A stretch of DNA of 35,831 bases from Candidatus Nanoarchaeia archaeon (GCA_038884815.1 JAWABC010000001.1:1-35831); one strand, 5' to 3'. Positions 3,370 to 29,093 are shown, numbered from the stretch's first letter. A program made the numbers and translations. The notes: generated from the sequence alone by a model not told the origin.

Positions 3370-4656
3370 TTATTCGTATCTTAAGGCATCCACAGGGTTC
3401 ATTTTTGATGCCCTGTACGCTGGTATCACACCAGCAAGTATCCCTATGCCTATGGATAATCCGAGAATAAGTATCAGCGTCTCTGGTGTTACCACTGCAG
3501 ATCCCAATCTCATCCTTCCCATGTTTATGTTGGCTGTTATTATGCTTGACATAACATATGAAGCTCCTATCCCAACCAGCGCCCCGATCACGCCTCCAGC
3601 CAACCCAACCATTCCTGAGTTGAAAAGGAACATTAACATTATGTCCTTGTTTTTTGCCCCTATTGATTTCATTATGCCTATCTCTTTTGTTTTTTCTAAT
3701 ACCGTGGTGAACATCGTGTTTGCTATCCCGACAGCTCCGACAAGTAAAGCTATGGCTGCGATAGCGCTTAAAAATAAAGTCATTGTGCTTAGGCTTTGTG
3801 ATATGGTTTCCTGCATTTCTTTTACTGAACTTACTGAGAAGCTTTTTGTCCTTTCATTTTCTGCCCTTACGAGCATCAGCCTTGAGTTTATCTGTGATAT
3901 TGTGTCTTCGATTAAGTCTGTGTCCTCAACCCTTATCTCTATGGATGTGAATTCCTTTGGGTCAACTTCTTCCAGCGTTGTTCTTGCAGCTTCGATGGGT
4001 ATGTAAACAGTTGAGCCTGACTGTCCTCCTATTCCCAAACCTTCTGATTCTTTAAGTACCCCCACAACCCTGAATGGCTTTCCCTCTATGGTTATCTGTC
4101 TGTTTATTGGTATGTCCTGCTTGAATCTTTCGGTTGCTATGTTGTAGCCTATTACTGCAACGTTGCTGTCCCCCTGTGTTAGGTATCTTCCTGAATCAAG
4201 CCCTGTGGTCTCCATGTCTTTCCAGACTTTTGTGTCAACCCCCTTGACGGTTGCTGATATTGTCTGGTCTAAATATCCTATGTCTGCCCTTTTGGAAACA
4301 ACTCCTTGTATGTATTTTATGTTGGGCACCATTTTCAGTGCCTGCACTTCCTTGTTTGTCAGGTTTTGTATTGTTCTTTCAGAGGTTGTTGTAGTCCGTC
4401 CTCCAAAATTGTCGCCTGCCATTCTGAACTCTGCTTGCCCTCCCATGGCCCTGGAATACCCAAGGGAAACAGTTACTACATCAGCCCCCAAGGTTCCAAG
4501 TCTTTCTTCCATGGCTTGCTGCATTCCTTCTCCGAGGGACATGATTGCTATGACAGATGCTACTCCTATTACTATGCCTATTATTGAAAGCCAGCTTCTT
4601 AGCTTGCTGTGGCTCAGAATATTGTAAGCCAGCTTTATGCTTTTGGACAACCTCAT
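3370..4656 (-). CDS. ABC transporter permease, MacB/FtsX-type with large extracytoplasmic domain
   Basis: 428 aa. The N-terminal TM (LRSWLSIIGIVIGVASVIAIMSLGEG) is typical of MacB_PCD/FtsX permeases. It has a large loop, three C-terminal TMs, and ends ...PAYRASKMNPVDALRYE (conserved FtsX-family C-terminus). Confidence 0.9.
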   Translation of the reverse strand: MRLSKSIKLAYNILSHSKLRSWLSIIGIVIGVASVIAIMSLGEGMQQAMEERLGTLGADVVTVSLGYSRAMGGQAEFRMAGDNFGGRTTTTSERTIQNLTNKEVQALKMVPNIKYIQGVVSKRADIGYLDQTISATVKGVDTKVWKDMETTGLDSGRYLTQGDSNVAVIGYNIATERFKQDIPINRQITIEGKPFRVVGVLKESEGLGIGGQSGSTVYIPIEAARTTLEEVDPKEFTSIEIRVEDTDLIEDTISQINSRLMLVRAENERTKSFSVSSVKEMQETISQSLSTMTLFLSAIAAIALLVGAVGIANTMFTTVLEKTKEIGIMKSIGAKNKDIMLMFLFNSGMVGLAGGVIGALVGIGASYVMSSIITANINMGRMRLGSAVVTPETLILILGLSIGIGILAGVIPAYRASKMNPVDALRYE

Positions 4657-4657
4657 T

Positions 4658-5554
4658 TTAGATTCTTTTTGAGAGTCTCCTTTTTCCCAAAAGCTTTCTT
4701 ACCGGTCCTATAACAAGAAGTATCGCTAAGGCTACTGAAACCCAGAACCAGGTGTTTTTCAAAAAGCTTGATGTTGTTCCTGTGCTTGTCCTCCCAGCAA
4801 ATGTTCCTGCGGTTCCTGTCATGGCTGATCCGCTTAGCGTTGCTGGGTTCACTAGAATCTGTTTTATTGCAGTCCTCCTTGCTCCGAAGGGGTCTGTGTA
4901 GTCAACCTGCACAGTTAACTCTTTTTTCTCAGATACTCCTCTTTGTTTTGGTGATATCTTGAAGGACACTATGGTGTAGTCCCCGCTTTCAAGGTTTCCT
5001 ACTATGGATGCTGAAGTTAGTTCTGTCATAAAGTTTTCCTGTTCTGGTATGCTTACTGTAATAGCATTGGCTGGATTCTTTCCTATGTTTGCTATCGCAA
5101 TGAAAACCCCTTCTGTTGTTATCTCCTGTAGCACAACGTCAAAACTAGTTTGTGCTTCCACTACCGTGATGGGCATTGTTTTTTCTTTCCATTGGCATCC
5201 TGCACAGTCTTTGTATTCAAAAACTATTGAGTTGTCTCCTTCTTTGGCTTGTTCATCTACTCTAACTTTGAATCTTTTTGTGACAGCGCTCTTTGCATTA
5301 AGCGTATCTATCACTATCTCTGGTTCTTCAGTCGGGTCTAAAGAGAAAGGGTAAGATTCTTTGAATCTTATTGCTGAGTTTTGTACTGCGTTGTTTTCAT
5401 TGTTGCTGACCCTTATCCATATCGTGAAGTATTCTCCTGCCTGTACCGGCGTTGGGTAGTAGTTGTCCACATTTATGTCAAGGGCATTAACCAATCCTAT
5501 GCTGAGCAGCATAGCAGTTAAAACAAGAAATGTTGATGTAATTTTTTTCTTCAT
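4658..5554 (-). CDS. Secreted Ig/CARDB-like (COG1361-type) protein, accessory component of the ABC operon
   Basis: 298 aa. It has a signal peptide, two beta-sandwich-like modules (YFTIWIRVSNNENNAVQNS... and FIAIANIGKNPANAITVSI...), a Thr/Gly-rich linker and a C-terminal TM. It sits between the ATPase and permease with a 4-nt overlap at 5551-5554. Confidence 0.6.
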   Translation of the reverse strand: MKKKITSTFLVLTAMLLSIGLVNALDINVDNYYPTPVQAGEYFTIWIRVSNNENNAVQNSAIRFKESYPFSLDPTEEPEIVIDTLNAKSAVTKRFKVRVDEQAKEGDNSIVFEYKDCAGCQWKEKTMPITVVEAQTSFDVVLQEITTEGVFIAIANIGKNPANAITVSIPEQENFMTELTSASIVGNLESGDYTIVSFKISPKQRGVSEKKELTVQVDYTDPFGARRTAIKQILVNPATLSGSAMTGTAGTFAGRTSTGTTSSFLKNTWFWVSVALAILLVIGPVRKLLGKRRLSKRI

Positions 5555-6270
5555 TTGCTCTTCCTCCTTCTATTTTTATGTTTGTTTGTATCGCTCTCTA
5601 TTTTACCGTCTTTCAGCTTGATTATCCTTTTTGCAAAATTCACCAATTCCAGATCATGCGTTACCATGATTACAGTCTTGCCCTGTTTTTCATGCAACTC
5701 GCATAAGAAGTCCATTATGTACTTGCCTGTTTTGCTGTCAAGGTTTCCTGTCGGTTCGTCTGCCATTACTATTTCAGGGTCGTTTGCCAAAGACCTTGCT
5801 ATCGCAACCCTTTGTGACTGTCCTCCGCTTAGCTCCGTGGGTTTGTGATGTGTCCGGTCACCCAACCCTACCACCTCTAACAGTTTCCTTGCCCTTTCTT
5901 TTGTTTTGTCTATTGTGTTATTCTGGAATTCGATTGGCAATGCTACATTCTCGAGGGCATTTAACGTTGGAATTAAGTTGAATTGTTGGAATATGAACCC
6001 TATCTTCCTACCTCTTATTTCTGCGAGTTTTGATTCGCTCATCATGGATATGTTTCTACCTTCAAGAAGTATTGTGCCTTGTGTGGGTTTGTCCAAGCAT
6101 CCTATTAAATGCATTAGTGTGCTTTTACCGCTGCCGCTTGCCCCTGTTATGGCTACGAACTCTCCTTTTTTTATCTTAAGGCTTACCCCCCTTAACGCCT
6201 CAACCTCTGCCTCTCCCATTTGGTAAACCTTCCAGACTTCTTTAAGCTCTATCAGCGTTCCATCGCTCAT
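5551..6270 (-). CDS. ABC transporter ATP-binding protein (MacB/LolD-like)
   Basis: 239 aa. Walker A GASGSGKST, Q-loop, signature LSGGQSQRVAIARSL, Walker B IVMADEPTGNLD and H-loop VTHD are all present. Confidence 0.95.
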   Translation of the reverse strand: MSDGTLIELKEVWKVYQMGEAEVEALRGVSLKIKKGEFVAITGASGSGKSTLMHLIGCLDKPTQGTILLEGRNISMMSESKLAEIRGRKIGFIFQQFNLIPTLNALENVALPIEFQNNTIDKTKERARKLLEVVGLGDRTHHKPTELSGGQSQRVAIARSLANDPEIVMADEPTGNLDSKTGKYIMDFLCELHEKQGKTVIMVTHDLELVNFAKRIIKLKDGKIESDTNKHKNRRRKSK

Positions 6271-6580: not shown

Positions 6581-6641
6581 TTTTTTGGTATTATGTTTGG
6601 AAAGCCTTTTATCTCGTCATCCGACAAGTGTACACATAAGG

Positions 6642-6650
6642 TTTTTATAA
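6642..6650 (+). promoter_or_regulatory. TATA-like box upstream of the LAGLIDADG ORF
   Basis: TTTTTATAA is centred about 28 nt upstream of ATG 6674 (MFISSEVAEICG...). Confidence 0.4.
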
Positions 6651-6673
6651 TCACCAACATTAGATATGAATTA

Positions 6674-7456
6674 ATGTTTATAAGTTCAGAAGTAGCTGAA
6701 ATATGCGGAATTCATGCAGGGGATGGTCACCTCAGGAAAAATGGTAAAGAATTTGAAGTTAGTGGGGGTATTGAAGAAAAGGATTATTATGTAGGACATG
6801 TTATCCCTTTATTTAATAGAGCATTTAATTTGTCTATAAAAGGTAAATATTTTAAATCAAAAGGTACTTATGGTTTTAGAACATCTAATTCTCATATTAT
6901 TAACACTTTAAAAGGAGCAGGATTTAAATTAGGTAATAAAACTTTAACTGCAAGTGTACCTAAACAGATATTGTATTCAAAAGATCTTGATTTAATTACT
7001 GCATTTCTAAGAGGTTATTTTGATACAGATGGCTGTTTCACATTTGATAAGAAAATTGGTAACCCTTTATCATTCCATAAAACAAGGAATTACTACCCTA
7101 GGATATTATTTACCACATGTTCAAAAAACCTAGCAAAAAACCTTAAATACCTAGTTCAACTATTGGGATTTAAAGCGCATACTTATGTATACATTCCAAA
7201 AGTGCCTACAGAAAACAAGAAGTATAAAATGCAAATAGTTGGAGTCAAAGCTTTAAACTTATGGATGCAATTGATAGGAACAGAGAACCCATCTAAACTT
7301 TCAAGATATTTAGTGTGGGATAAATTTGGTTTTTGCCCACCATACACCACATATGAACAAAGACTAAAGATGTTAAGTGGTAGGTTAAAGCCAGATTTAC
7401 TTTATATAAAGGGCCTATGGTGTAACCTGGAAAGCACGTACCGCTTCGGACGGTGA
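6674..7456 (+). CDS. Double-motif LAGLIDADG homing-endonuclease-like protein (3' end reads into tRNA-Arg)
   Basis: Two LAGLIDADG-type motifs are present: EICGIHAGDGHL and FLRGYFDTDGCF. The track ORF opens at 6593, but ATG 6674 fits the TATA-like box. There is no stop before the tRNA gene. The final 15 codons and the TGA stop (7454-7456) lie inside the tRNA. Confidence 0.75.
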   Translation: MFISSEVAEICGIHAGDGHLRKNGKEFEVSGGIEEKDYYVGHVIPLFNRAFNLSIKGKYFKSKGTYGFRTSNSHIINTLKGAGFKLGNKTLTASVPKQILYSKDLDLITAFLRGYFDTDGCFTFDKKIGNPLSFHKTRNYYPRILFTTCSKNLAKNLKYLVQLLGFKAHTYVYIPKVPTENKKYKMQIVGVKALNLWMQLIGTENPSKLSRYLVWDKFGFCPPYTTYEQRLKMLSGRLKPDLLYIKGLWCNLESTYRFGR

Positions 7457-7484
7457 GATGGGGGTTCAAATCCCTCTAGGCCCA
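7411..7484 (+). tRNA. tRNA-Arg (anticodon TCG)
   Basis: Manual cloverleaf: acceptor GGGCCTA/TAGGCCC; D-arm GTGT-AACCTGGAAA-GCAC; anticodon arm TACCG-CTTCGGA-CGGTG with TCG at 7446-7448; 4-nt variable loop AGAT; T-arm GGGGG-TTCAAAT-CCCTC; discriminator A. No encoded CCA and no intron. Confidence 0.9.
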
Positions 7485-10657: not shown

Positions 10658-12901
10658 TTATTTCTTCTTTTTTAGGAACCATGCTGTTATGATTCCTACT
10701 GCTGCTAAGAATGCTAAGAATATTATTACTCCAACAGCTCCGATACCAGTTTTTGTTTGTTGAGTTGGTATTGTTGTAGTTTTTTCTTCTTGTTGTTGGC
10801 TTGGTGTTTCTTGCCCCGGTATTTCTATACCTTCTGTTTTTTCTTTAGGTTCTTTGGTAATTCCTTCATCAACAATCTCTCCTGTGATCCCAACACCACC
10901 ATCTCCATAGCTTGTTGAGTAGAATACCTGGAAGTTTTTGCTCGTGCTTGCTTTATTCCCATTAGAGTTTTCCACCTCACATTTTACTGTGTATGTTCCT
11001 GCTTGGTTTGTATCATCTCCGGTGAAGGTTGCCGTGTCTGTTGTTGTGCTTCCCCCTGTCTTTGTTACTGTTGTTAGGTCTGGCTTTGTCAGCGTCCATG
11101 TCCAACTGCTTGCTACGTTACTCTCACACTTGTATGTTATGCTGTCTCTTATCCCTATTGTTGTATCACTAGGTTCAGTAATTGTTGGTGCGTTTAACGT
11201 TATGGCTCCTACTGTTAGGGTAAAGTTGGAACTGCTAAATGCAGTATTTCCTGCTGTATCATTGCATTCCACATTCCATGTATAAGTGCCATCGCTTAAA
11301 TTAATGCTTGTGAAGTTTGTCTGAACATTATTTGTGTAAGTAACAGACTGATTAGCATGCCATTCTATTAAGCTACTAGTGAAGTATAAAGTGCACGTGT
11401 CAGGATGCAATTCAATAGTTGTAAAACCAAATACTACATCCAATCCGTCAGCATCATCGCTATTGTCAACAGGCTCTAAACTAACAACAGGAGCTATGTC
11501 ATCGTAAGCATAGACATAAGCTTGACCAGAGTCAGTAGCATAAGAGGCCCCTACTGTAACCTCTGTGTACCCATCACCATTAACATCACCATTACAAACA
11601 AAGCTTCCAAAGGTGTCTCCAGCTTGCGTCCCATTAAGGGTTATATTAGAATAAGATGAAGAGTCCACGTTGATGATTGAGTTGTAATCGGCTCCGAAGA
11701 ATATATACACTTGACCAGCACCAGCAAGACCCAAAGGATCGGAATAAACTGATGCTATTATGTCATCATAACCATCATTGTTAACGTCTCCAGAACTGAT
11801 GTAATAACCAAGGTAGTTTTCTTCTGCAGATCCGTTAAATGTAATGTTTGCATATGCTGTAGCCTCGACATCAACTATGGAAGTATAGTTCACTCCAAAA
11901 AATACAAAAATCTGACCAGCTTCATTAAGTTCATTGGCGGTGCCATCAGCATCCACTATTATATCCGCATACCCATCATTGTTTATATCTCCACTAGAGA
12001 TAAATGCACCAAAGTTTCCATCTATTTGTGTTCCATTGAGGGTTATGTTGGAATTGGTTGTATTTGTATATAACATACTGATATCACTACCAAAAAACAC
12101 AAAAACATCGCTCCCAGCATTACTTATTATGTCATCATAATAGTCATTGTTTATATCTCCGCTGCCGATATGATAACCTAATCCATCAGCAATTGCCGTT
12201 CCATTAATTGTTATGTTAGCGTATAATGAAGCATCTTCATTAATAATTGAAGTGTAATTGGCTCCAAAAAATACAAACACTTGGCCGGCATTGGTAAGTC
12301 CTGTAGGGTCTGCTCCATTAGCCCCTACTATAATGTCAGCATAACCGTCCCCATTTATATCGCCACTTTCGACAGAGACACCAAATTGGTCTCCTGCTAG
12401 CGTTCCGTTGATAGTTATGTTGGCAAAGGATACAGCATTTTCGTTAACTGGAGATGTATAGTTTGTTCCAAAAAAAACATACACTCTACCACCATTGTCA
12501 TTTTCTTGCGAATTACCTATGATAATGTCAGAATAGCCATCATTGTTGATATCACCAGTACTGATACCATTACCAATCTGTCCTACAGTCCCGTTAAGGG
12601 TTATGTTAGCATACATAGCATCCGTATCTTGTATACCATTAGGACCTCCAAAAAAGACATACACGATGCCTACATCGGTAACACCTGAAGGATCAGCATA
12701 ATTAGCCCCTATAATAACATCAGCATAACCGTCCCCATTAACATCAGAACTTATGCCAGCACCATTACCGAACATATCACCTGATGCGGTTCCATTAAGT
12801 GTTGCTATTTTCACAGCTCCAGCTGCGATAGCAAAGTTAGAACTAACGATTATTACACTCACAATTAGTATTGTAAATATCAAACTCTTTTTTAATATCA
12901 T
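10658..12901 (-). CDS. FG-GAP repeat (integrin-alpha-like beta-propeller) surface protein with PKD/Ig-like domains and C-terminal membrane anchor
   Basis: 747 aa. It has a signal peptide, seven repeats each carrying a Ca-binding-like D(I/V)N(G/N)DGY(A/D)D loop and a V(F/Y)VFFG strand, then two Ig/PKD-like modules (TYTWNVECNDTAGN..., GTYTVKCEVENSNGN...). These are followed by a T/Q/E/P-rich linker and a terminal TM ending KKKK. Confidence 0.9.
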   Translation of the reverse strand: MILKKSLIFTILIVSVIIVSSNFAIAAGAVKIATLNGTASGDMFGNGAGISSDVNGDGYADVIIGANYADPSGVTDVGIVYVFFGGPNGIQDTDAMYANITLNGTVGQIGNGISTGDINNDGYSDIIIGNSQENDNGGRVYVFFGTNYTSPVNENAVSFANITINGTLAGDQFGVSVESGDINGDGYADIIVGANGADPTGLTNAGQVFVFFGANYTSIINEDASLYANITINGTAIADGLGYHIGSGDINNDYYDDIISNAGSDVFVFFGSDISMLYTNTTNSNITLNGTQIDGNFGAFISSGDINNDGYADIIVDADGTANELNEAGQIFVFFGVNYTSIVDVEATAYANITFNGSAEENYLGYYISSGDVNNDGYDDIIASVYSDPLGLAGAGQVYIFFGADYNSIINVDSSSYSNITLNGTQAGDTFGSFVCNGDVNGDGYTEVTVGASYATDSGQAYVYAYDDIAPVVSLEPVDNSDDADGLDVVFGFTTIELHPDTCTLYFTSSLIEWHANQSVTYTNNVQTNFTSINLSDGTYTWNVECNDTAGNTAFSSSNFTLTVGAITLNAPTITEPSDTTIGIRDSITYKCESNVASSWTWTLTKPDLTTVTKTGGSTTTDTATFTGDDTNQAGTYTVKCEVENSNGNKASTSKNFQVFYSTSYGDGGVGITGEIVDEGITKEPKEKTEGIEIPGQETPSQQQEEKTTTIPTQQTKTGIGAVGVIIFLAFLAAVGIITAWFLKKKK
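11491..12811 (-). repeat. Seven tandem intragenic FG-GAP coding repeats (about 170-210 nt period)
   Basis: The motif CCAAAAAA(T/C)ACA(A/T)A(C/A)A on the + strand (encoding V-F/Y-V-F-F-G) recurs near 12648, 12467, 12260, 12090, 11892 and 11692, with matching DxNxDGY loops. Confidence 0.8.
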
Positions 12902-12951
12902 TTATAGTGCTTTTTATAGTTAAGATAATATTTAAATTTTTTGTTAAAAAG

Positions 12952-12965
12952 ATAAATTAATATAC
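12952..12965 (+). promoter_or_regulatory. TATA-like box for the Cys-rich protein / ACP bicistron
   Basis: ATAAATTAATATAC is centred about 30 nt upstream of ATG 12989. Confidence 0.35.
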
Positions 12966-12988
12966 TACCTCTTTTTTTACCTTGTTTT

Positions 12989-13243
12989 ATGGTCCAGGTT
13001 CCTTGTTGGGATATGAATAAAAAATGTGTGGTGAAGGGTCTTCCTAAAGATGAATCCCATTGTCCTGTTTATTTGTCTGGCAGGTCTTGTTACGAGTTTG
13101 ACTGGGCTGCTTTCATAAAGGACTTGCCTCCTGATGAGAAGAAATATTGGAAGGTTCATCTTGGCAGGTGCAAGAACTGTAATGTCTATAAGGTTTACAG
13201 GAAGGATATGGATAAGGTTTTGTCTGAAGTCAAGAAGTTGTAG
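12989..13243 (+). CDS. Small Cys-rich protein (six Cys; pattern reminiscent of the two-CW domain)
   Basis: 84 aa. The pattern is PCW-x5-C-x11-CP-x7-C(Y)-x26-C-x2-C. The layout CW...C...CP...GRxC(W/Y)...CxxC resembles what I recall of two-CW domain proteins (from memory). It is probably metal or Fe-S binding. Confidence 0.6.
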   Translation: MVQVPCWDMNKKCVVKGLPKDESHCPVYLSGRSCYEFDWAAFIKDLPPDEKKYWKVHLGRCKNCNVYKVYRKDMDKVLSEVKKL

Positions 13244-13255
13244 GGGGTTTTGAAA

Positions 13256-13504
13256 ATGTTGGAGGATGATGTTATAAAGATAATTGCTGATCAGCTGGAT
13301 GTCAAACCCAGCAAGATAAGTTTGGAGTCGAAGTTTGTTGATGACCTTGGTGCTGACAGCCTTGACTTGGTTGAGCTTGTGATGACTTTTGAGGACAACT
13401 ATGGTATTGAGATTAGCGATGAGGATGCTGAGAAGCTTGTATATGTCAAGGATGTTGTTGAGTACATAAGGAACAACGCTCCTGCTTATAAGAAGGTAGC
13501 GTAA
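13256..13504 (+). CDS. acpP: Acyl carrier protein, bacterial AcpP-like
   Basis: 82 aa from ATG 13256 (the track uses TTG 13250). An SD-like GGGGG lies 7 nt upstream. The core [35 protein letters not shown] closely parallels E. coli Acp[36 protein letters not shown]. The phosphopantetheine Ser codon AGC is at 13358-13360. Confidence 0.9.
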
Positions 13505-13505
13505 G

Positions 13506-13515
13506 TTTTATATAA
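13506..13515 (+). promoter_or_regulatory. TATA-like box for proS
   Basis: TTTTATATAA is centred about 28 nt upstream of ATG 13538, implying proS has its own (leaderless) transcript. Confidence 0.45.
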
Positions 13516-13537
13516 CTCGTTTCTTTGAATTCTTTTT

Positions 13538-14974
13538 ATGTCCAAAGAGCTTGGATTAACGGTCAGGAAGTCTGAAGATATAAGTGAGTGGTACACGCAG
13601 GTTATTCAGAAGGCTGACCTGATTGAGTACAGCGCTGTTTCCGGCTGTTACATTCTTAAGCCTGGTGCTTATTTTATTTGGGAGCAGATACAGGGCTTTG
13701 TTGATAAGGAGTTTAAGAAGGTTGGCATACAGAATGTTTATTTCCCTCTTTTTATCCCTGAGAAGTTTTTGGTTAAGGAGCAGGAGCACGTTGAGGGTTT
13801 TGCTCCTGAAGTTGCCTGGGTTACAGAAGCTGGCAACACAAAATTGGATGAAAGGCTTGCTATTCGCCCGACTTCTGAAACTATAATGTATCCTACTTTT
13901 TCAAAAATGATTAGGTCCTGGCGTGACCTTCCTTTGCGCTATAACCAGTGGAACAACGTTGTTCGTTGGGAGTTCAAGCACCCTGTTCCTTTTTTGAGGT
14001 CTCGTGAGTTTTTGTGGAATGAGGGCCATACTGTTTTTGCAACGGAAAAGGAGGCGTTGGCTGAAGAGAAGGAAATTCTTGGGATTTACAAGAAGGTTAA
14101 TGAAGAACTGTTGGCACTTCCAGGGATCATAGGAAGAAAGACTGATAAGGAGAAGTTTGCCGGTGCTGTTTTTACTTCAAGTATTGAGCACTTATTGCCT
14201 GATGGTAAGGCTGTCCAGGGTCCTGACTTTCATCATGACGGGCAGAATTTTGCAAAGGCTTTTAACATAACTTTTTTGGATGCTAACAAGGAGAAGCAGT
14301 TTGCTTACCAGAACACTTGGGCCATAACAACAAGGCAGATTGGTGTTATGGTGATGGTTCATGGTGATGATAAAGGTTTAGTCCTTCCACCAAAACTTGC
14401 CTCAACTCAAGTTGTTATAGTTCCCATTTTTGATGCTAAAACAAAGGATAAGGTTTTGAAGGAAGCTAAAAATGTAGAGTCTAAAATAAAAAACAATTTT
14501 AGGGTTTTGCTTGATGATCGTGATGAGGTCTCTCCTGGTTGGAAGTTTAACGAGTGGGAGTTGAAAGGTGTGCCTATAAGGGTTGAGATAGGTCCGAAGG
14601 ATATTGCAAAGAAGCAGGTTATTGTTGTGAGGCGTGATACTTTAAAGAAAGAGCCTGTCAAGCTTACTAAGCTTCCTGAAAAAATTAGTAGCTTGATGGT
14701 TGAAATTCATAAGAATTTGTTCAGTAAGGCTTCTGACTTCTTGAAGAAGAACACGCATAAGGTTAAGTCTTATTCGGAATTAAAGGAGATGCTTAAGAAA
14801 GGTGGTTTCTTGCAGGCTTGTTGGTGTGGTGACCGTGCTTGCGAGGATAAGGTTAAGGATGAAACAGGTGCTAAGATTACCAATATTCCTTTTGAGCAGG
14901 GAAGAATATTTTCTGATTGTGTTGCTTGTGGCAAGAAAGCCAAGTTCGTTGTCAACTTTGCCAAAACTTATTAG
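13538..14974 (+). CDS. proS: Prolyl-tRNA synthetase, archaeal/eukaryotic type
   Basis: 478 aa. It shows the class II aaRS core plus an anticodon-binding domain and a C-terminal Zn-binding domain (CWCGDRACE...CVACGKKA), with an N-terminus (ISEWYTQVIQKADLIEY) typical of archaeal ProRS. Confidence 0.95.
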   Translation: MSKELGLTVRKSEDISEWYTQVIQKADLIEYSAVSGCYILKPGAYFIWEQIQGFVDKEFKKVGIQNVYFPLFIPEKFLVKEQEHVEGFAPEVAWVTEAGNTKLDERLAIRPTSETIMYPTFSKMIRSWRDLPLRYNQWNNVVRWEFKHPVPFLRSREFLWNEGHTVFATEKEALAEEKEILGIYKKVNEELLALPGIIGRKTDKEKFAGAVFTSSIEHLLPDGKAVQGPDFHHDGQNFAKAFNITFLDANKEKQFAYQNTWAITTRQIGVMVMVHGDDKGLVLPPKLASTQVVIVPIFDAKTKDKVLKEAKNVESKIKNNFRVLLDDRDEVSPGWKFNEWELKGVPIRVEIGPKDIAKKQVIVVRRDTLKKEPVKLTKLPEKISSLMVEIHKNLFSKASDFLKKNTHKVKSYSELKEMLKKGGFLQACWCGDRACEDKVKDETGAKITNIPFEQGRIFSDCVACGKKAKFVVNFAKTY

Positions 14975-16905
14975 ATTTTCAAGTAATTAAGTAGTTCTGC
15001 ATACCAAGGAAGATTTAAAATGTTTAGCTCAAGGTTTTCTTCATCTCTTTTTATTAGATCCCCGCTCTCATCGCTGTATTCCATATGTAACTGTATGAAC
15101 CCTCTTCTGAATTGTTTTCCTTTAACAGGTATTTCTATTGTATAACTTCCTTCAAGCTCTTCGATTGTTATTTCCCCGACGTTTTTTATTATTATTCTGA
15201 TGTCTTTTGCTTTTGTTCTGGTGAGCAGTGTTAGGTTTAGCGTTGTTTCTTCATTGTAGCCAAGTTTCTTGGGTTCGTACGCTACTATTTTTATGTCTGG
15301 TATTTCCTGAACGTTCAGCGTTATACTTGTTTGTTTGATGTATTTTTCTGTTTCGGCAGTGACCGTTAATGTTTCATTCCTTCTTAGTTCTATCTCAAAT
15401 TCTATTTCTCGCTGCTCGGCTATTGTAAGTTTTGTTTCATTGCATTGGTCTTTTATGCAAACATTTATTTTGTCTAAATTTTTATTTCCAAGATTCCTGA
15501 CCATACATGTTATCTTTGCGTTTTCAGAGCTCGTGTACATTTCCTTGTCAGTTTCGCATTTCAGCTCTATGTTCGTAAACAGTATTTTGTTTTCTCTTTC
15601 TGTCAGCATTTCAAGTATTTGTTCAGCCCATTCTTTTGTGTATTTCTTGAACCCAGGCCCGTATTTTATTTCGCTTTCTGCTGTTTCTGCAAAGTTGCTC
15701 GTTACCTCTATGTCAGCTATGTATATGTAGTTGCTATCTAGGTTGTCAGGTGTTTTTAGTGTCCAGTAGAATTTTTTCTTTTCTCTTGGTTTTAGAACTG
15801 TATGTATTGATGGGTTTTTCTCTACTGTCTGTGGGGCTTTTGTGAGTGTAAAGCTTAATGGCAGGTAATAGTCTTGTGTGTTCTCTGCTTCAACTTCCAG
15901 TATCGTATAGCTTCCGAACGCTACCTCGTCTTCTAAAGGTGCTACTTTCAGTTTTGCTAGTTTTTTTACCTCTCCTCCTTTCTTAAGGACTCTTGTTTTT
16001 ATGTCTGGTGGTGTTGTTTTTATTTCAACCCCTCTTGTTCTTGATGTGTATGTTACAGATGCCTCTCCTGAGTCAAGTGAGTCTTGCATTTTTACATGAC
16101 CGGGATCCACCCATCCGTACTGTCCGAATGTCACATCTACTGGTATCCATCCTTGACCTGGCATGTAGACTTCTGCCCATCCATGGTTTTCGAATTGGTA
16201 ATTAACATTAGAGTACACGACTCCTGAAACGAATCTTGTTGGCACGCCTAAACTTCTCATCATTGATATATACAGATTTGTTATCTCATCGCAAACCCCC
16301 TCTTTGTTTGTTAGAACCCATGATGATTTTTGTACCACTGTTGCTGTCAATGTGTTCAGATCGTATTTTATGGTTTTCCTTACCCATTCCCCGACTTTGT
16401 ATGTTACCATGTACAGGTCTGTTTCCCCTTCTGCTATCTCTGCTGCTTTTTGCTTTATTTGGTCATTTATGTCTATGTATTCTGATGGCATTGTGTACCT
16501 TCTTTCTTCAGGCTCAAGCTCTTGTATAGGGAAGTCAACCTTGCTTGTTATTTTCTTTATTTTGTTGTATGTCCTTACGTCAGAATTTACGTTGTATGTG
16601 AGCTCGTATTTTTGTGGCTCTTCCCAAGTGATGGTTATCTTTCTTTCTCCTTTTTCTACTTCTGCTTGAGGTTCTGTTTTAACATCTAAGCTTAAAACTT
16701 CTTGGTCGTCTGTGTTTATAGGGAACAATTCAAGGTCTGCTTGTAAAGATTCTATGCTTGCTTTGCTTGATTTTTTTTCAGCCTGTATCGTTGTGAATAT
16801 CTCTATGTTAAGGTCTAAGCTTGAGTACTTGCTGTAGCTTTCCTCTGCGGCTGTTGCTATCTGTAAAAGAATCAGTGCTGTTACTATCACCATTAATTTT
16901 TTCAT
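14971..16905 (-). CDS. Secreted transglutaminase-like (Cys-His-Asp) protein with multiple Ig/CARDB-like domains
   Basis: The transglutaminase-core triad context is EGVCDEITNLYISMMRSLGVPTRFVSG, ENHGWAEVYMPGQGWIPVDVT. I place the start at ATG 16905 (MKKLMVIVTALILLQIATA signal peptide). The track start at 17139 would overlap the divergent gene at 16987. The stop overlaps the proS stop (TTAG at 14971-14974). Confidence 0.85.
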   Translation of the reverse strand: MKKLMVIVTALILLQIATAAEESYSKYSSLDLNIEIFTTIQAEKKSSKASIESLQADLELFPINTDDQEVLSLDVKTEPQAEVEKGERKITITWEEPQKYELTYNVNSDVRTYNKIKKITSKVDFPIQELEPEERRYTMPSEYIDINDQIKQKAAEIAEGETDLYMVTYKVGEWVRKTIKYDLNTLTATVVQKSSWVLTNKEGVCDEITNLYISMMRSLGVPTRFVSGVVYSNVNYQFENHGWAEVYMPGQGWIPVDVTFGQYGWVDPGHVKMQDSLDSGEASVTYTSRTRGVEIKTTPPDIKTRVLKKGGEVKKLAKLKVAPLEDEVAFGSYTILEVEAENTQDYYLPLSFTLTKAPQTVEKNPSIHTVLKPREKKKFYWTLKTPDNLDSNYIYIADIEVTSNFAETAESEIKYGPGFKKYTKEWAEQILEMLTERENKILFTNIELKCETDKEMYTSSENAKITCMVRNLGNKNLDKINVCIKDQCNETKLTIAEQREIEFEIELRRNETLTVTAETEKYIKQTSITLNVQEIPDIKIVAYEPKKLGYNEETTLNLTLLTRTKAKDIRIIIKNVGEITIEELEGSYTIEIPVKGKQFRRGFIQLHMEYSDESGDLIKRDEENLELNILNLPWYAELLNYLKI

Positions 16906-16953
16906 CTTTATAGTCAATCTTTTCCATGTATTTAAATCTTTACTCATTTCAAA

Positions 16954-16965
16954 AAATATATAAAA
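16954..16965 (+). promoter_or_regulatory. TATA-like box for the ORF at 16987
   Basis: AAATATATAAAA is centred about 27 nt upstream of ATG 16987. Confidence 0.4.
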
Positions 16966-16986
16966 GAGTTTAATCACATTTTTTTT

Positions 16987-17733
16987 ATGATTGTTAGTTT
17001 TTTTGAGGAGTTTCCAAAAAAAGAGAACCTTTCTAAGCTGAAGCTTGTTGAGTGGCCTACCAAGGTTTACATAGCTGCTAGGAGCCTTAAGGAATTCAGG
17101 AAGTACAAGGCCATGGTCAAAGGCAAGAATGTTATCCAAGTTGTTTATTGGCCTGTTCTTGATAAGTTGGAAGGTTATTGGATTTCTCCCTTTTCCGATA
17201 AATCAGCACTTTTAAGAGTTCTTGGCGAGCTTAAAGGCAAAAACATCCCTGTTATGATAGATGCGGAAATTCCTTTCGCTACGAATGTCCATCTTTATTT
17301 CCGGTCATTTAATTTTTTCAGCAACAAGAAGTTGATTCAGGATTTTGTTAAGAAGCATAAGGATGTTTATGTTTGTGAGTATTATCCTGACGGCAAGCTT
17401 AATGAGGACCTCCTTTCCTTGTTCGGCCTTCATTTTGACTCAGGCAAGTATAAGAGTAAAGTCATAAGGATGGTTTACCACTCCATGCGCAGGTTTGACG
17501 AACCCTTTATACTCTCTGAGATAAAACGTGGCAAGAAGCAGTTCGGCAAGAACTTTATAGTTGCTTATGGAACAATTGCTAAGGGCATTAAAGGTCATGA
17601 ACGGATACTCTCACCTTCTCAGCTTGAGAAGGATTTGAAAATTGCAAAAAAGCTGGGTGTGAAGGAAGTTGTTATTTATCGTCTTGGTGGTTTGAATAAT
17701 GACTATGTTTCTGTAATCAAAAAGTTTTTATAA
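16987..17733 (+). CDS. Hypothetical protein, 248 aa (no family recognised)
   Basis: A long ORF with codon usage like its neighbours and a well-spaced TATA-like box. I found no motif I can name. Confidence 0.6.
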   Translation: MIVSFFEEFPKKENLSKLKLVEWPTKVYIAARSLKEFRKYKAMVKGKNVIQVVYWPVLDKLEGYWISPFSDKSALLRVLGELKGKNIPVMIDAEIPFATNVHLYFRSFNFFSNKKLIQDFVKKHKDVYVCEYYPDGKLNEDLLSLFGLHFDSGKYKSKVIRMVYHSMRRFDEPFILSEIKRGKKQFGKNFIVAYGTIAKGIKGHERILSPSQLEKDLKIAKKLGVKEVVIYRLGGLNNDYVSVIKKFL

Positions 17734-18342: not shown

Positions 18343-19224
18343 TCAGAAATAACTATGAGTTAGACTTCCTCTAAATCTTCTTCCTGCTAGTTTTGCTTTT
18401 TCTTCTATTTTCTTTGCATATTTCGTGCCAAAGAGTTTTATTGCTGGGAATTTTGTTATTGCATTAGCTCCTGCTCTCAACAACAAATCAATTTCATCAA
18501 GCTTATTAACCCAGCTTCCTGCTATTATCTCAATTTTTGGGAATTTTATTCTTGTTTTTGCAATCCATTTGGTATAATATTCGCTTTCTGGTCCTTTTTT
18601 GTAAATCGTTCCTTTGTGTGGGTTCAGTCTGTAGAACGTTACCCTATCTATTTTGTATTTTTTTATGAATTTGTGTAGTTTCTCAATGTCTTTTTCAGTT
18701 TCGCCAAGACCAATTATTATCGTAATCCCTTTTTTTAATCCTAACTTATCCGCTTCTATCAACATTTTCTTTATTTCTTCCAAGGGTTTGCTTGGGCATG
18801 CCTCTTTCCTTACTTTCTCATTTATGCTTTCTACTGCTCCAACAACTCCTTCGATGTAAGGCTTGAATTTTTTCATTTCTGTTTTTGATAAAACGCCTAT
18901 GTTGAGCCATTGCTTCTGTCCTGTTGCCTCATAAACTTTTTTTGTTATCTCCACTAATTCTTTTATTGTATAGCTATCATACCCTCCTGATAAGAATTCT
19001 ATTTTCCATCCTTGCTTTTTGCACATCTCTGCTTCCTTCAATATGCCCTCTATCCTTCTCCTCGCCAGTTTTGGGTTCTTTATCCTTGGTTTTTGTATGC
19101 TCATGTAGCAAAAATTGCAGTCTCCTTTGCTGCAGTACCATGAAAGGAATATTGCCCTCTCGAACCAAGTCTCTGCCTTAAAATTTTTCAAGAACACCTT
19201 GTTCGCTTTTTGTATTAAATTCAT
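18343..19224 (-). CDS. Radical-SAM-like (BioB/HydE-fold-like) protein with non-canonical CX4CX2C cluster motif
   Basis: 293 aa. FLSWYCSKGDCNFCYMS gives C31, C36 and C39, verified codon by codon at 19108-19134. A GG-type SAM motif (FLSGGYDS) and an alternating beta/alpha pattern follow. There is no SPASM or extra domain. Confidence 0.75.
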   Translation of the reverse strand: MNLIQKANKVFLKNFKAETWFERAIFLSWYCSKGDCNFCYMSIQKPRIKNPKLARRRIEGILKEAEMCKKQGWKIEFLSGGYDSYTIKELVEITKKVYEATGQKQWLNIGVLSKTEMKKFKPYIEGVVGAVESINEKVRKEACPSKPLEEIKKMLIEADKLGLKKGITIIIGLGETEKDIEKLHKFIKKYKIDRVTFYRLNPHKGTIYKKGPESEYYTKWIAKTRIKFPKIEIIAGSWVNKLDEIDLLLRAGANAITKFPAIKLFGTKYAKKIEEKAKLAGRRFRGSLTHSYF

Positions 19225-19276: not shown

Positions 19277-19897
19277 ATGCGTGTTTTGTTGGAAAAGGAG
19301 GCTGAGGATTTTCTTGCTAGGAATCGCTTTAACGTGGTTCCAAGGTTGATCGCTAAAAATGACAAGCAAGTTTTTTCTAAAGCTAACAAGCTTGGTTTCC
19401 CAGTTGTTGTTAAGTTGTTGTCAAGGGATTTTGTCCATAAGACTGAGAAAGGTGCTGTCGAGGTGGATATTCGTGATAAGAAGGAGTTGAAGAAAGCTGT
19501 TAATGAGTTGAAAAAAATTAAGGCTGATGGTTTTTTGGTGCAAAAATTTATTCCTGGTGACTGGTTTTTGGTTGGCTTGAAGAAAGATTCCAGCTTTGGT
19601 CATGTTGTTGCTTTTGGTTTGGGTGGTATTTACACTGAGGTTATGAAGGATGTTTCGTTTAGAGTTTGTCCTCTTTCTAAAAAAGATGTTGATTCCATGC
19701 TTAAAGAAACTAAGGCTTTTGGCATCCTTTCCGGTGCCCGTGGCCGCAAGCATGATATTAACTCTATTAAGAGGTTGTTGTTGAGAATTTCAAGGTTGCC
19801 TCAAAAACATCCTGAGATTGTTGAGCTTGATATCAACCCATTGGTTGTTAATGCCAAACAGGCTGTTATTGTTGACGCAAGGGTTGTTCTTGAATAG
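19277..19897 (+). CDS. ATP-grasp protein resembling the beta subunit/domain of ADP-forming acetyl-CoA synthetase (AcdB-like)
   Basis: 206 aa from ATG 19277; the track start at 19115 overlaps the radical-SAM gene. LLEKEAEDFLARN...FPVVVKLLS..HKTEKGAV...GFLVQKF...GLKKDSSFGHVVAFGLGGIYTEVMKDVSFRVCPL...ELDINPLVV matches the ATP-grasp_5 layout of NDP-forming acyl-CoA synthetases (from memory). Confidence 0.7.
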   Translation: MRVLLEKEAEDFLARNRFNVVPRLIAKNDKQVFSKANKLGFPVVVKLLSRDFVHKTEKGAVEVDIRDKKELKKAVNELKKIKADGFLVQKFIPGDWFLVGLKKDSSFGHVVAFGLGGIYTEVMKDVSFRVCPLSKKDVDSMLKETKAFGILSGARGRKHDINSIKRLLLRISRLPQKHPEIVELDINPLVVNAKQAVIVDARVVLE

Positions 19898-26153: not shown

Positions 26154-27020
26154 TTATTTTTTTATTCCTTTTAGAAGTAGTGCAGCCCCTATTATACCTC
26201 CATCCTCCAGTTTTGTTTTTGCTATTTTTGTTTTTACGAACTCTCTTTGTCTGATTGTTTTAATCATTTCTTTTTGGAATAAGTTCCAGCTTTTCGCCAG
26301 TCCCCCTCCAATTATTATAACCTCGGGATCAAAGCTGTTTGCTATGTTTACTAATCCCACCCCTAAATGCTTGCCAAACTCCTTGTAAGCCTCCTTTGCT
26401 TTTTTGTTCCCTTTTTCTGCCAGCTCTGCTATAGTCTTTGGGTTTATCTTTTTTCCGAATGTCCTTTGTATTGCTCTTGCCGAAGCGTATTCTTCAAAGC
26501 AACCATAGTTGTTACAGCACGTGCTTTTTATCCCGTCAAAGTTTATTGTCATGTGTCCTATTTCAACTGCGTTTCCTTTCCCACACCACATTTTTCCATC
26601 GGCTATAACGCCACCCCCTATTCCAGTACCTAGCGTTATAAAAACAAAATTTTTATGACCAACTCCTGCACCATATTTTGCCTCTGCAAGTGTTGCAGCC
26701 TTTACCTCATTGCTTATTATTACTTTTTTTCTAAATTTTTTTTGCAAGTGTTTTTTTATGTTGAATCCATTTAGGCATTTTATGTGAGGGCTCCTTATCA
26801 CAATGCCTTTTTTAACATCCACCATCCCAGGAAACCCTACTCCTATCCCTTTCACGCTTTTATCATTTAGTAAGTCAACAAGCCTTGTTATTTTTTGCAC
26901 TACCTTATCTCTTCCTTGGCTGGCTTTTGTTTCAACTTCTATCTTTTTTATCACTCTTGAACCTTCAACGAGTCCTGCCTTTATTTTCGTTCCGCCAATG
27001 TCAAGTCCTATTACTTTCAT
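26154..27020 (-). CDS. ROK-family sugar kinase (glucokinase-like)
   Basis: 288 aa. It has the N-terminal ATP motif MKVIGLDIGGTKIKAG and the ROK Zn motif GHMTINFDGIKSTCCNNYGCFEEYAS. It overlaps the upstream PGI/PMI gene by 4 nt. Confidence 0.85.
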   Translation of the reverse strand: MKVIGLDIGGTKIKAGLVEGSRVIKKIEVETKASQGRDKVVQKITRLVDLLNDKSVKGIGVGFPGMVDVKKGIVIRSPHIKCLNGFNIKKHLQKKFRKKVIISNEVKAATLAEAKYGAGVGHKNFVFITLGTGIGGGVIADGKMWCGKGNAVEIGHMTINFDGIKSTCCNNYGCFEEYASARAIQRTFGKKINPKTIAELAEKGNKKAKEAYKEFGKHLGVGLVNIANSFDPEVIIIGGGLAKSWNLFQKEMIKTIRQREFVKTKIAKTKLEDGGIIGAALLLKGIKK

Positions 27021-27937
27021 TTTTTTGTCAGTTGTTTTTTCAAGTAGGTTATTAGCTTGTTTTCGTAAGGGTTAATCCTTTCAAGAATTCCTAGTTGGTA
27101 TGTTACCCAATCTCCGAAGTGTATAGCATAAAATATCTTTGCTAAGTCGCTTTTTCCTCTCATCCACACCTCGTTCACTTCTATCTTCTTAGCTATTATT
27201 TTTTCTGTTGCCTCAATTCTCTTTTTTTCTTTCTTACTTTCACCTTTATGCCTTATGACTATTAATTCAAATCTTGCTGGTCTTTCATATCCTTCTATTG
27301 CGTTGTGGTCAAGTTCGGGAAACTCAAGTTCTATTGCTTGCATCTTGCTGTTTTCATTGAATTGTTGCCTCCACCTTAAACCTACTGACTTGTATTTGTT
27401 TGGCACGCAAATTATCGGCACCTTACCTTTCAGCCCTTTTGCTAATTTTTTGGTTTGTTTCTTGTCCAAGCTTTTTATGACTTTAATAACTTCTGCTATG
27501 TTTTGTTTCCCGATAATGCCAGAATTCTCCAGTATTTTCAGCATAGGGAAGAATAGGTAATGCAGAGCATACCTTGTTGGTGTTATCCGCGGTATTATTA
27601 TTGCATTTTTCTCAATGCCAAGTTGTCCACCTGATGTTATTATCACTATGTTCTTTGTTTTTTTCTTCGCTTTTTTGTAGCAGCTTATGGTTTCCTCCGT
27701 TTCTCCAGATGCGCTCACTATAAAGACAAGTGTTTTTTTGTCTACGTATTTTGGTATTTCATAATCCTTGTTTGTTATAACTATCTTGTCTTTTAGCAAA
27801 TCTTTGAGTATGTCTCCTGTAATCCCGGAAGCGCCCATACCGCACACTACTATCTTGTCTGCTTTCTCTACTTTTATGTTTCCTAGTTTTGTTGCTTCCT
27901 TTATCTGTTCAGGTACTTTTTTTAGAATTTCTTCCAT
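27017..27937 (-). CDS. Bifunctional phosphoglucose/phosphomannose isomerase (archaeal PGI/PMI, SIS domain)
   Basis: 306 aa with SIS motifs VVCGMGASG and VSASGETEETIS. Size and layout match the crenarchaeal-type PGI/PMI family (from memory). Confidence 0.8.
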   Translation of the reverse strand: MEEILKKVPEQIKEATKLGNIKVEKADKIVVCGMGASGITGDILKDLLKDKIVITNKDYEIPKYVDKKTLVFIVSASGETEETISCYKKAKKKTKNIVIITSGGQLGIEKNAIIIPRITPTRYALHYLFFPMLKILENSGIIGKQNIAEVIKVIKSLDKKQTKKLAKGLKGKVPIICVPNKYKSVGLRWRQQFNENSKMQAIELEFPELDHNAIEGYERPARFELIVIRHKGESKKEKKRIEATEKIIAKKIEVNEVWMRGKSDLAKIFYAIHFGDWVTYQLGILERINPYENKLITYLKKQLTKK

Positions 27938-27938
27938 C

Positions 27939-29045
27939 TCACTTTACTTGTTGGAACCTATTTTTTAGTCTCTTCATCACATCCGGAAGTGTTGTGTATT
28001 CCATGTCCGCTAAGGGTAACCTGTGAGGTTCGAAAGGCCCGTGTCTTCTCATGTAGTCTGCTGCTTCTTGTGCTCTTCTCCTTGTGAAATCGTAAGCGAC
28101 ATCTTCAAACAGGTCAACGGGTCCTACCAGTTTTCCGTTTGCAACTTGGAAACCTAAGGCTACAACTCTTGGTGGTCCGTCAAACCTTGTGCATCTCGCA
28201 TCTTTTAAGCCAACTGGCATTAGTGGTCCGTTGTGGCTTCCTCTCATCCACCCATCAACTAGATGGGGGAATGAGAATGCTTCTAAAACTTCTCCCAGTG
28301 CTGGTAACCCTGACTGTGCTCTCACAATGCCACAAGGATCATCTTTTCCCACGTATTTGTGTGCAGTCTGGTATAATTTTTCTGTTGACATCACTGCTAC
28401 TGGCTCGTCTCTTGGTAGTTTTTCTCCTCTTGGGTAAACCCTTTTTATTACGTATCTTGACCTGGCACCAATCAAAGTTAGCAAATCGTATACTTCTTCT
28501 GGGCAGTCAAGCATTATTCTTTTGTGTTCCATTATGTCCCAGACCTCAAACCTGAAGCCTGGCCTCATGGTTGGGTCTATTACTAGTCCTGCTGTGTTGA
28601 ACGGGTCAGCGAACATCTTGAATATGGGGAAGTTGAACGCTCCTGGTTCTGTCTTGTCCAACATGAAAACAACTAATGGTTCTCCTGGCCTTTCTGTGAA
28701 TTCCATTTCTGCTACACCAGGCCCCATTCCTTTGACGTTTCCTGAGAATGCTTCTTTTAGAAGGTCTTGTCCTGCTCCGTATAGTTTTAGTTTTTTTGCT
28801 ATTTTTGTGCATGCAACAAAAGTGTCCCATGCGAGTTTGTGTATGGTTGTTGAGTCAACCCCTTTGTTGTGGCTCATTATCAGCTCTAAATCGTCTCCGC
28901 AATGGCTTATGTGGTAGTCTATTAGAAGTTTTTTCTTTTTTTTAAGCTGTTTTTCAGCCTCTTTTATGAGTTCTGGGTGTACTGTGCTGTGCCCGGGCCA
29001 TCCTCCTACGTCTGCCTTTATTACTGAGATTGTAACCTTTGGCAT
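27939..29045 (-). CDS. fbp: Fructose-1,6-bisphosphate aldolase/phosphatase (class V FBPase)
   Basis: 368 aa from ATG 29045 (SD AGGTGAT upstream; the track start at 29069 adds 8 aa). MPKVTISVIKADVGGWPGHSTVHPEL is the hallmark N-terminus of FBPA/P. The family signature runs throughout (GDDLELIMSH..., MGPGVAEMEF...). Confidence 0.92.
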   Translation of the reverse strand: MPKVTISVIKADVGGWPGHSTVHPELIKEAEKQLKKKKKLLIDYHISHCGDDLELIMSHNKGVDSTTIHKLAWDTFVACTKIAKKLKLYGAGQDLLKEAFSGNVKGMGPGVAEMEFTERPGEPLVVFMLDKTEPGAFNFPIFKMFADPFNTAGLVIDPTMRPGFRFEVWDIMEHKRIMLDCPEEVYDLLTLIGARSRYVIKRVYPRGEKLPRDEPVAVMSTEKLYQTAHKYVGKDDPCGIVRAQSGLPALGEVLEAFSFPHLVDGWMRGSHNGPLMPVGLKDARCTRFDGPPRVVALGFQVANGKLVGPVDLFEDVAYDFTRRRAQEAADYMRRHGPFEPHRLPLADMEYTTLPDVMKRLKNRFQQVK

Positions 29046-29093
29046 GAATATCACCTCTTTATTATACATATTCGGGAATTTGAAAATATTTAA

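Follow-up and report, generated by a model that had tools for sequence, protein, structure and literature searches.

In a stretch of archaeal DNA of 35,831 nucleotides (Candidatus Nanoarchaeia archaeon, GCA_038884815.1 JAWABC010000001.1:1-35831, called here, in its full length, the window), a gene encoding an acyl carrier protein (ACP) of the bacterial AcpP type directly follows a gene encoding a small protein with six cysteines, the six-Cys protein. As read from the sequence, the two genes form a bicistronic unit, and the clade that carries the pair is a very narrow one. The interpretation that we favour, and hold tentatively, is that of an operon fixed in one narrow DPANN lineage, whose ACP may serve acyl or lipid enzymes acquired by transfer, with the six-Cys protein as an accessory or a regulator. 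A conserved ACP operon under selection in DPANN provides a clean test case for a lone bacterial carrier in an archaeal cell, where it might belong to the salvage of host lipids, be the remnant of a transferred pathway, or do something new.

The identity of the second gene is plain. Its product scores above the curated cut-offs of PF00550 (49.4 bits, cut-off 20.8), TIGR00517 (96.5, cut-off 70.45) and NF002148 (104.9, cut-off 71), and its best relatives in PDB are the ACPs of Thermus thermophilus and Aquifex (E about 1e-22). A preliminary description of this DNA, made from the sequence alone, had taken the 82-residue product for an AcpP-type carrier, had located the codon of its modified serine and had suggested a profile search; the search agrees with it, and the codon lies where it was claimed to be. 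When set against E. coli AcpP, 37 of 76 residues are identical. With bacterial AcpP, as defined by TIGR00517 and PF00550, the window ACP shares a length of about 80 residues, the serine of the DSL site, an acidic helix II and an intact hydrophobic core. Residues D34-S35-L36 and the helix II motif are invariant in the eight ACPs of the clade, the DSL site is likewise invariant in 115 bacterial homologues, and nearly all residues of helix II, from D30 to M43, are those of the consensus of these bacterial sequences. The differences are specific to the clade: isoleucine at position 7 (lysine in bacteria), tyrosine at position 63 (threonine or serine in bacteria), loss of the conserved Gly15 of bacterial AcpP, and a C-terminus prolonged by an extension in which Tyr78 is invariant. 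The host also differs, as a DPANN archaeon, and so does the company of the gene, which stands beside the six-Cys gene instead of fabD/G/F, plsX or rpmF. The ACP is under purifying selection, with a dN/dS of 0.10-0.49 in pairwise Nei-Gojobori comparisons among orthologues, the method used throughout for such values.

The gene that precedes it is no less real. Because its orthologues keep all six cysteines, once start codons are corrected, and because its dN/dS lies between 0.035 and 0.19, the six-Cys ORF (open reading frame) is a gene under purifying selection; of the two, the ACP gene is the less constrained. The protein follows the pattern C6W-x5-C13-x11-C25P-x7-C34-x26-C61xxC64, with an invariant W39. 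Pattern and length are as first described, and homologues have now been found.

The arrangement of the pair is compact (Table 1). The two genes are 12 nt apart in the window and 1-14 nt apart across the orthologous loci; the Shine-Dalgarno-like run of guanines is present in six of seven loci, the seventh (L001) having its ORFs 1 nt apart. The ACP had been proposed to be a second cistron behind such a gap and such a run, and this is how the locus reads. Ahead of the first cistron, GATAAATTAATATACTACCTCTTTTTTTACCTTGTTTT is a putative promoter of the two-gene unit; the sequence beyond it, as well as the upstream genes, differs among the seven loci. A TATA-like box is found 25-32 nt 5' of the ATG in most window genes, and transcription in the window is probably leaderless or nearly so.

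Table 1. Elements of the six-Cys/ACP unit and of the gene that follows it, in window coordinates
Feature	Position	Strand	Basis or remark
Putative promoter and very short leader, GATAAATTAATATACTACCTCTTTTTTTACCTTGTTTT	12951-12988	+	38-nt element nearly identical in seven loci
TATA-like box within GATAAATTAATATACTACCTCTTTTTTTACCTTGTTTT	12952-12964	+	about 26-38 nt before the six-Cys ATG
First cistron, six-Cys protein, 84 aa	12989-13243	+	orthologues, dN/dS, AlphaFold2 model, weak NF045718 match
GGGGG, Shine-Dalgarno-like run	13243-13247	+	overlaps the TAG stop of the first cistron; ends 8 nt before the ACP ATG
Second cistron, AcpP-type acyl carrier protein, 82 aa	13256-13504	+	PF00550, TIGR00517, NF002148 and PDB matches
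Phosphopantetheine-attachment Ser35 codon (AGC)	13358-13360	+	conserved D34-S35-L36 at the start of acidic helix II
ACP-ProRS spacer, putative separate promoter of the ProRS gene	13505-13537	+	TTTTATATAA box at 13506-13515
Archaeal-type prolyl-tRNA synthetase (ProRS), outside the unit	13538-14974	+	TIGR00408, 582.5 bits against a cut-off of 437

Seven orthologous loci carry the six-Cys gene followed by the ACP gene: the window, L001 (JGI 3300069122), L002 (JGI 3300049914), L003 (Logan SRR12594517), L004 (NCBI metagenome GCA_900174595.1), L121 (GTDB metagenome-assembled genome, MAG, CAYSAF01, labelled Woesearchaeota; its full contig is L138) and L134 (JGI Ga0194111). Two further assemblies, L136 (NCBI MAG GCA_038884535.1) and L137, repeat the window's own sequence. 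The pairing is conserved in relatives, a point that the preliminary description had proposed to examine. The genes upstream vary from locus to locus (an FG-GAP protein, DHO_dh, TrmB, a P-type ATPase), and in L134 the gene 3' of the ACP is different too, unrelated and on the opposite strand; as the flanking genes differ among loci, the pair stays together through local rearrangements. The clade is nevertheless very narrow. Among 5.8 billion proteins the six-Cys ORF has four homologues at E<=0.01, while the ACP has five close relatives, after which come generic AcpP-type homologues; the clade totals about eight ACP sequences. A degenerate DNA pattern for the clade ACP was found in one genome of 185,579 GTDB species representatives, and a metagenome scan yielded one added contig, of 1.25 kb. 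We found no paper describing the six-Cys/ACP pair, nor any on a 'two-CW domain', the name of the NCBIfam model discussed below: while the ACP is of a known kind, to which it adds a member, its operon with an unannotated six-Cys family is apparently undescribed.

One of the variable upstream genes deserves a separate remark. In the window the P-type ATPase gene is separated from the pair by the gene of a 747-aa FG-GAP/Ig-like surface protein (10658-12901, minus strand). Nothing separates them in L121, where the ATPase gene lies right against the pair, so that the FG-GAP gene looks like a lineage-specific insertion.

Where does the carrier come from? A neighbour-joining tree of the 115 top homologues with E. 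coli AcpP gathers the eight ACPs of the clade into one monophyletic group, which is nested among sequences of bacteria. The nearest homologues outside the clade are 58-66% identical, and those that have a source name are bacterial; the closest of them (P0011, 66% identity) lies in a typical bacterial context, L32-PlsX-ACP-RNase III-SMC-FtsY-Ffh. Because the clade ACPs are monophyletic within bacterial AcpP, the ACP is likely to be an old bacterial transfer into the ancestor of the lineage, and the phylogeny thus speaks for the horizontal acquisition from a bacterium that had been suggested at the outset. The tree is short and unbootstrapped, and does not allow a donor to be named. The pair has a GC content of 0.41, and both its GC and its GC3 (GC at third codon positions) match those of neighbouring genes; the composition of the ACP gene would have drifted towards that of its host since the transfer.

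Archaeal fatty acid synthesis is thought to be independent of ACP. The starting point of the preliminary description, that archaea lack the carrier, agrees with a description of nearly all Archaea as devoid of ACP and ACP synthase (bioRxiv 10.1101/2024.07.05.601840), but it is too broad, as a small number of archaea possess ACP, ACP synthase as well as malonyl-CoA:ACP transacylase (MCAT) through transfer from bacteria (PMC3533463). DPANN MAGs, moreover, are reported to carry FabG, FabI, FabZ and other bacterial fatty acid genes, and a bacterial glycerol-3-phosphate dehydrogenase is among the bacterial-type lipid genes of other DPANN (PMC10936187, PMC8204110). The window resembles the latter in its host, DPANN being known to carry genes of bacterial lipid pathways, and it resembles the sporadic archaeal sets in having an ACP of bacterial descent in an archaeal genome. 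It differs from these sets in that no PPTase (phosphopantetheinyl transferase), MCAT or Fab gene is present on the contig of about 36 kb, and in that the ACP belongs to a conserved operon with an uncharacterised Cys-rich protein.

The archaeal context of the pair is confirmed, its host being a DPANN archaeon. The window (GC 38%) encodes the archaeal markers ribosomal protein L15e, class V fructose-1,6-bisphosphate (FBP) aldolase/phosphatase, Nre and proS family I ProRS, so that the archaeal surroundings announced for this locus hold; it also encodes an enzyme of the aldehyde ferredoxin oxidoreductase (AFOR) family, triosephosphate isomerase (TIM), a P-type ATPase and surface proteins. The closest match of the ProRS in GTDB species genomes is that of a Candidatus Aenigmatarchaeota MAG (71% identity), further matches at 52-63% identity being from DPANN and other archaea, and the MAGs of the lineage are labelled Aenigmatarchaeota or Woesearchaeota. 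A bacterial-looking gene in such a place might be the work of an assembly chimera or of bacterial contamination, and this would fit with the bacterial nature of the closest homologues that the ACP has outside its clade. Yet the same archaeal-flanked order is met in seven loci coming from independent JGI, NCBI and Logan assemblies, GC matches that of the neighbours, and the upstream elements are archaeal in style, like those of other window genes. We have rejected this explanation, which verges on the impossible, and the locus stands as a genuine one, as first assumed.

The six-Cys protein belongs to a family that had to be defined here. No Pfam model matches it, and none matches any family member meaningfully. 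Its sole NCBIfam match is NF045718, two_CW_domain, at 15.4 bits against a cut-off of 35 (E 0.018), aligning residues 5-72 with positions 2-79 of the 80 of the model. The same model is found, below threshold, in 15 of 39 family members at E<=5 (best E 0.0057), and it is the only NCBIfam model that recurs among them; none of the 39 reaches 35 bits. The label 'two-CW-like' used in the preliminary description is therefore right as to a remote resemblance spanning nearly the whole model, and wrong if it is meant as membership. With the 'two-CW domain-containing protein' of NF045718 the family shares a length of about 80 aa; the consensus of the family has two CW motifs, CWExN..C...CPAY....CWExDW...W...C..CPVY.H (alignment A3, 39 sequences). 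It differs by scores that all fall far below the cut-off and, in the window clade, by the second CW, which is CY (C6-W7 but C34-Y35). At best, the family would be a remote sister of the two-CW domain. In the alignment C6, C25, C34, W39, C61 and C64 are invariant, and C13 is nearly so.

Searched with a profile, 1.84 billion cluster representatives (50% clustering) yielded 49 members at E<=1e-3. Most are stand-alone proteins of 77-95 aa, and NCBI names exist for two, both 'hypothetical protein'. A DNA-pattern scan of GTDB genomes gave 46 loci, 42 of them confirmed with a hidden Markov model. Bacterial hosts include Thermoleophilia, Actinomycetes, Bacillota, Nitrospirota, Thermodesulfobacteriota, Eisenbacteria and Aminicenantes; archaeal hosts include Theionarchaea, Thermococci, Altiarchaeota and Aenigmatarchaeota. 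Among these loci an ACP gene is next to the six-Cys gene in L121 only, 41 other genomes being without ACP within the locus. The neighbours are of other kinds: 11 loci (among L088-L133) have a flavodoxin-like FMN reductase or a WrbA-like protein, five actinobacterial loci have rpoD directly upstream, and in the archaeal loci L089, L128 and L133 an NrdG/AmmeMemoRadiSam-like radical SAM gene lies upstream at a distance of 33-42 nt. Rare fusions join the six-Cys domain to an HD_4 domain or to an ATC_hydrolase domain. For this newly defined family of about 80 residues, the pairing with ACP offers the first concrete hypothesis that can be put to the test.

With alignment A3 as input, AlphaFold2 gave a confident all-helical model of the six-Cys protein (pLDDT 88.8, pTM 0.73). 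Foldseek retrieved nothing for this model in PDB or BFVD at E<=0.001, and a sequence search of PDB with A3 came back empty. Six invariant cysteines, a distribution skewed towards anaerobes and neighbours of redox type suggest that the protein binds a metal or an iron-sulphur (Fe-S) centre. Several more precise identities were considered and discarded. With NF052368, the model of zinc-binding anti-sigma (ZAS) proteins, it scores 12.7 bits, where the cut-off is 50; the arrangement H57-x3-C61-x2-C64 is present in the window clade, but beyond it the family does not conserve H57. As a precursor of a ribosomally synthesized and post-translationally modified peptide (RiPP), or a SCIFF-like one, it would hardly be conserved over its full length, confidently folded in the model and usually devoid of an adjacent maturase. 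A reading as a protein like the high-potential iron-sulphur proteins (HiPIP) finds no support in profiles or fold. Finally, a parallel, an analogy only, can be drawn with the mitochondrial ACP-LYRM pairs, in that a small helical protein is here co-encoded with an ACP and a link with Fe-S is conceivable. LYRM-containing complexes are present in PDB. The six-Cys protein has, by contrast, no LYR motif, no match to the Pfam model Complex1_LYR (PF05347) and no Foldseek match in PDB at the above threshold, and we do not retain this identity.

What the carrier may do has to be considered in the light of the enzymes around it. A fab or pls gene neighbourhood is typical, without being obligatory, for the housekeeping carrier of FAS II, the fatty acid synthase of type II. 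The window ACP has none, its nearest bacterial homologue being found in the order PlsX-ACP-RNase III. In the window, where all non-shadow ORFs of at least 100 aa were compared with Pfam and NCBIfam, there is no PPTase, ketosynthase, acyltransferase, Fab or Pls domain, in line with the first account of the locus, which had listed no PPTase, ketosynthase, acyltransferase or fab gene. The ORF at 16987-17733 (248 aa), considered as an Sfp-type PPTase, has no Pfam or NCBIfam match and was dropped.

The scenario that we favour would run as follows. The ancestor of the lineage acquired, in all likelihood, an AcpP-type ACP from Bacteria, the base composition of which later converged on that of the host. 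A PPTase encoded elsewhere in the genome would convert it to holo-ACP, a conversion that is most likely since its DSL serine is intact, as are its acidic helix II and its hydrophobic core. In the holo form it would supply acyl groups to a limited number of bacterial-type enzymes of acyl or lipid metabolism, themselves gained by horizontal transfer; salvage, elongation or transfer of host-derived fatty acids are examples. Its companion, most likely a binder of a metal or an Fe-S centre, would be co-expressed with it and act as an accessory or a regulator, redox or metal-dependent.

Several observations weigh against this scenario. No PPTase, fab, pls or acyl-ACP synthetase gene is found on L001, L002 or L138 either, and the full contig of L121 has no ACP-related gene besides the ACP of the pair; with no partner enzymes on these contigs or in the window, the acyl-lipid role is without local support. 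AcpP is highly constrained in organisms endowed with a full FAS II. Here the ACP evolves faster than its six-Cys partner (omega up to 0.49; identity 63-85%), which, taken with the changes K7I and T/S63Y, the lost Gly15 and the Tyr78 extension, could mean a different or a reduced set of partners. The 41 genomes with a six-Cys gene and no ACP in the locus imply that the family does not, as a rule, require ACP for its function. Lastly, the clade is young (dS among orthologue pairs from 0.5 to above 2), so that adjacency is weak evidence of coupling.

The same facts can be arranged differently. The two proteins might form a dedicated module, independent of any fatty acid synthase, in which a metal- or Fe-S-binding six-Cys protein makes direct contact with ACP in its holo or acyl form; its target would be the thiol or the cargo tethered there, or else the acylation state of ACP would serve as a regulatory signal, by analogy with the role of mitochondrial ACP and LYRM proteins in Fe-S biogenesis. 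We deem this somewhat unlikely. It would account for the tightness of the operon (1-nt spacing in L001), for the persistence of the pair through rearrangements that in L134 cost it the adjacency of ProRS, for the lack of fatty acid synthase genes nearby, for the clade-specific changes on the ACP surface together with the C-terminal extension, and for the stronger constraint on the six-Cys protein. It is at odds with the ACP-free six-Cys genes of 41 other genomes and with a six-Cys protein unlike LYRM or any solved fold, while the narrowness of the clade makes conserved linkage weak evidence. A bolder version, in which the six-Cys protein and the orphan ACP are a dedicated two-component system, for an undescribed ACP-dependent pathway or a regulatory switch, strikes us as rather improbable. 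If true, a carrier from bacteria and a Cys-rich module that is widespread among anaerobic Bacteria and Archaea would have been combined in the DPANN lineage, and the unannotated two-CW-like family would for the first time be open to functional study.

It may also be, at the other extreme, that the two genes are neighbours by coincidence. The ACP gene would then have been transferred on its own and retain a residual or moonlighting role, perhaps with its product in the apo form, and the six-Cys protein would have an unrelated redox-sensing or regulatory one, such as it presumably has in the other lineages. That the family normally stands alone, with other neighbours elsewhere (FMN reductase, rpoD, radical SAM), and that the ACP is relatively fast-evolving, with no partner enzymes in view, goes in this direction. 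Purifying selection on both genes does not, nor do the invariance of Ser35 and of the helix II motif in the eight clade ACPs and the conservation of a shared putative promoter element and of the Shine-Dalgarno-like run. On balance we consider coincidence unlikely.

The ProRS gene that comes next on the same strand calls for a discussion of its own. It adjoins the pair in six of the seven loci, L134 being the exception, and in all six, L121 included, the spacer between ACP and ProRS is conserved, with a length of 32-33 nt. Because of the TATA-like box proper to the ProRS gene and because L134 has no adjacent ProRS, the unit is best taken as made of two genes, with ProRS as a mere syntenic neighbour. 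One could imagine that this enzyme charges the ACP with proline and so makes it an aminoacyl carrier, in the manner of the ligases that resemble aminoacyl-tRNA synthetases or of the prolyl-S-PCP (peptidyl carrier protein) pathways, and proximity across so short a spacer in six loci would invite the idea. Known amino acid:carrier-protein ligases of this type are, however, truncated, without tRNA-binding domains and dedicated to a carrier protein encoded nearby, whereas the window ProRS is canonical and full length (Pfam domains tRNA-synt_2b, HGTP_anticodon and ProRS-C_1), thus retaining its anticodon-binding and C-terminal domains. It has its own TATA box, is replaced in L121 by a xenologue of 37% identity and is not adjacent in L134; furthermore, at 80 other archaeal ProRS loci no ACP or six-Cys gene occurs within 6 kb. 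We reject loading with proline as highly improbable.

The case of L121 is worth a further comment. There the ProRS gene that fills the same slot (4603-6105, also seen in L138) encodes a protein only 37% identical to that of the window, and the flanking ATPase, six-Cys and ACP genes are 72-77% identical to their window counterparts. With a diverged ProRS between a conserved spacer box and conserved flanks, this looks like the in-situ xenologous replacement of an aminoacyl-tRNA synthetase gene.

Other features of the window were noted in passing. On its plus strand, a DUF7090/DUF7504 protein (1182-1727) is encoded after a tandem of two genes for stand-alone response-regulator receivers (478-846 and 839-1192). 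Further on, a 287-aa ORF with a LAGLIDADG_3 homing-endonuclease-like domain (6593-7456, plus strand) overlaps by 46 nt the 5' part of a tRNA-Arg(TCG) gene (7411-7484, plus strand). The mechanical ORF at 14971-17139 (minus strand; TTG start, 722 aa) overlaps ORF 16987-17733. Its counterpart is called at 644 aa on related contigs, so that this transglutaminase-like gene probably starts near 16905. A sugar-phosphate cluster (26154-31983, minus strand) comprises a ROK kinase, a SIS protein resembling phosphoglucose isomerase (PGI), the FBP aldolase/phosphatase, the AFOR-family enzyme and TIM; the AFOR enzyme scores 435 bits with GAPOR_Arch, far under the cut-off of 1300 bits, which leaves its substrate uncertain. 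Finally, a radical SAM protein with a BATS domain (18343-19224, minus strand; NCBIfam equivalog PRK06267, 'hypothetical protein', 389 bits) is divergent from an ACD-beta-like ATP-grasp gene (19277-19897, plus strand), and both are kept in L001, with 85% and 71% identity, respectively.

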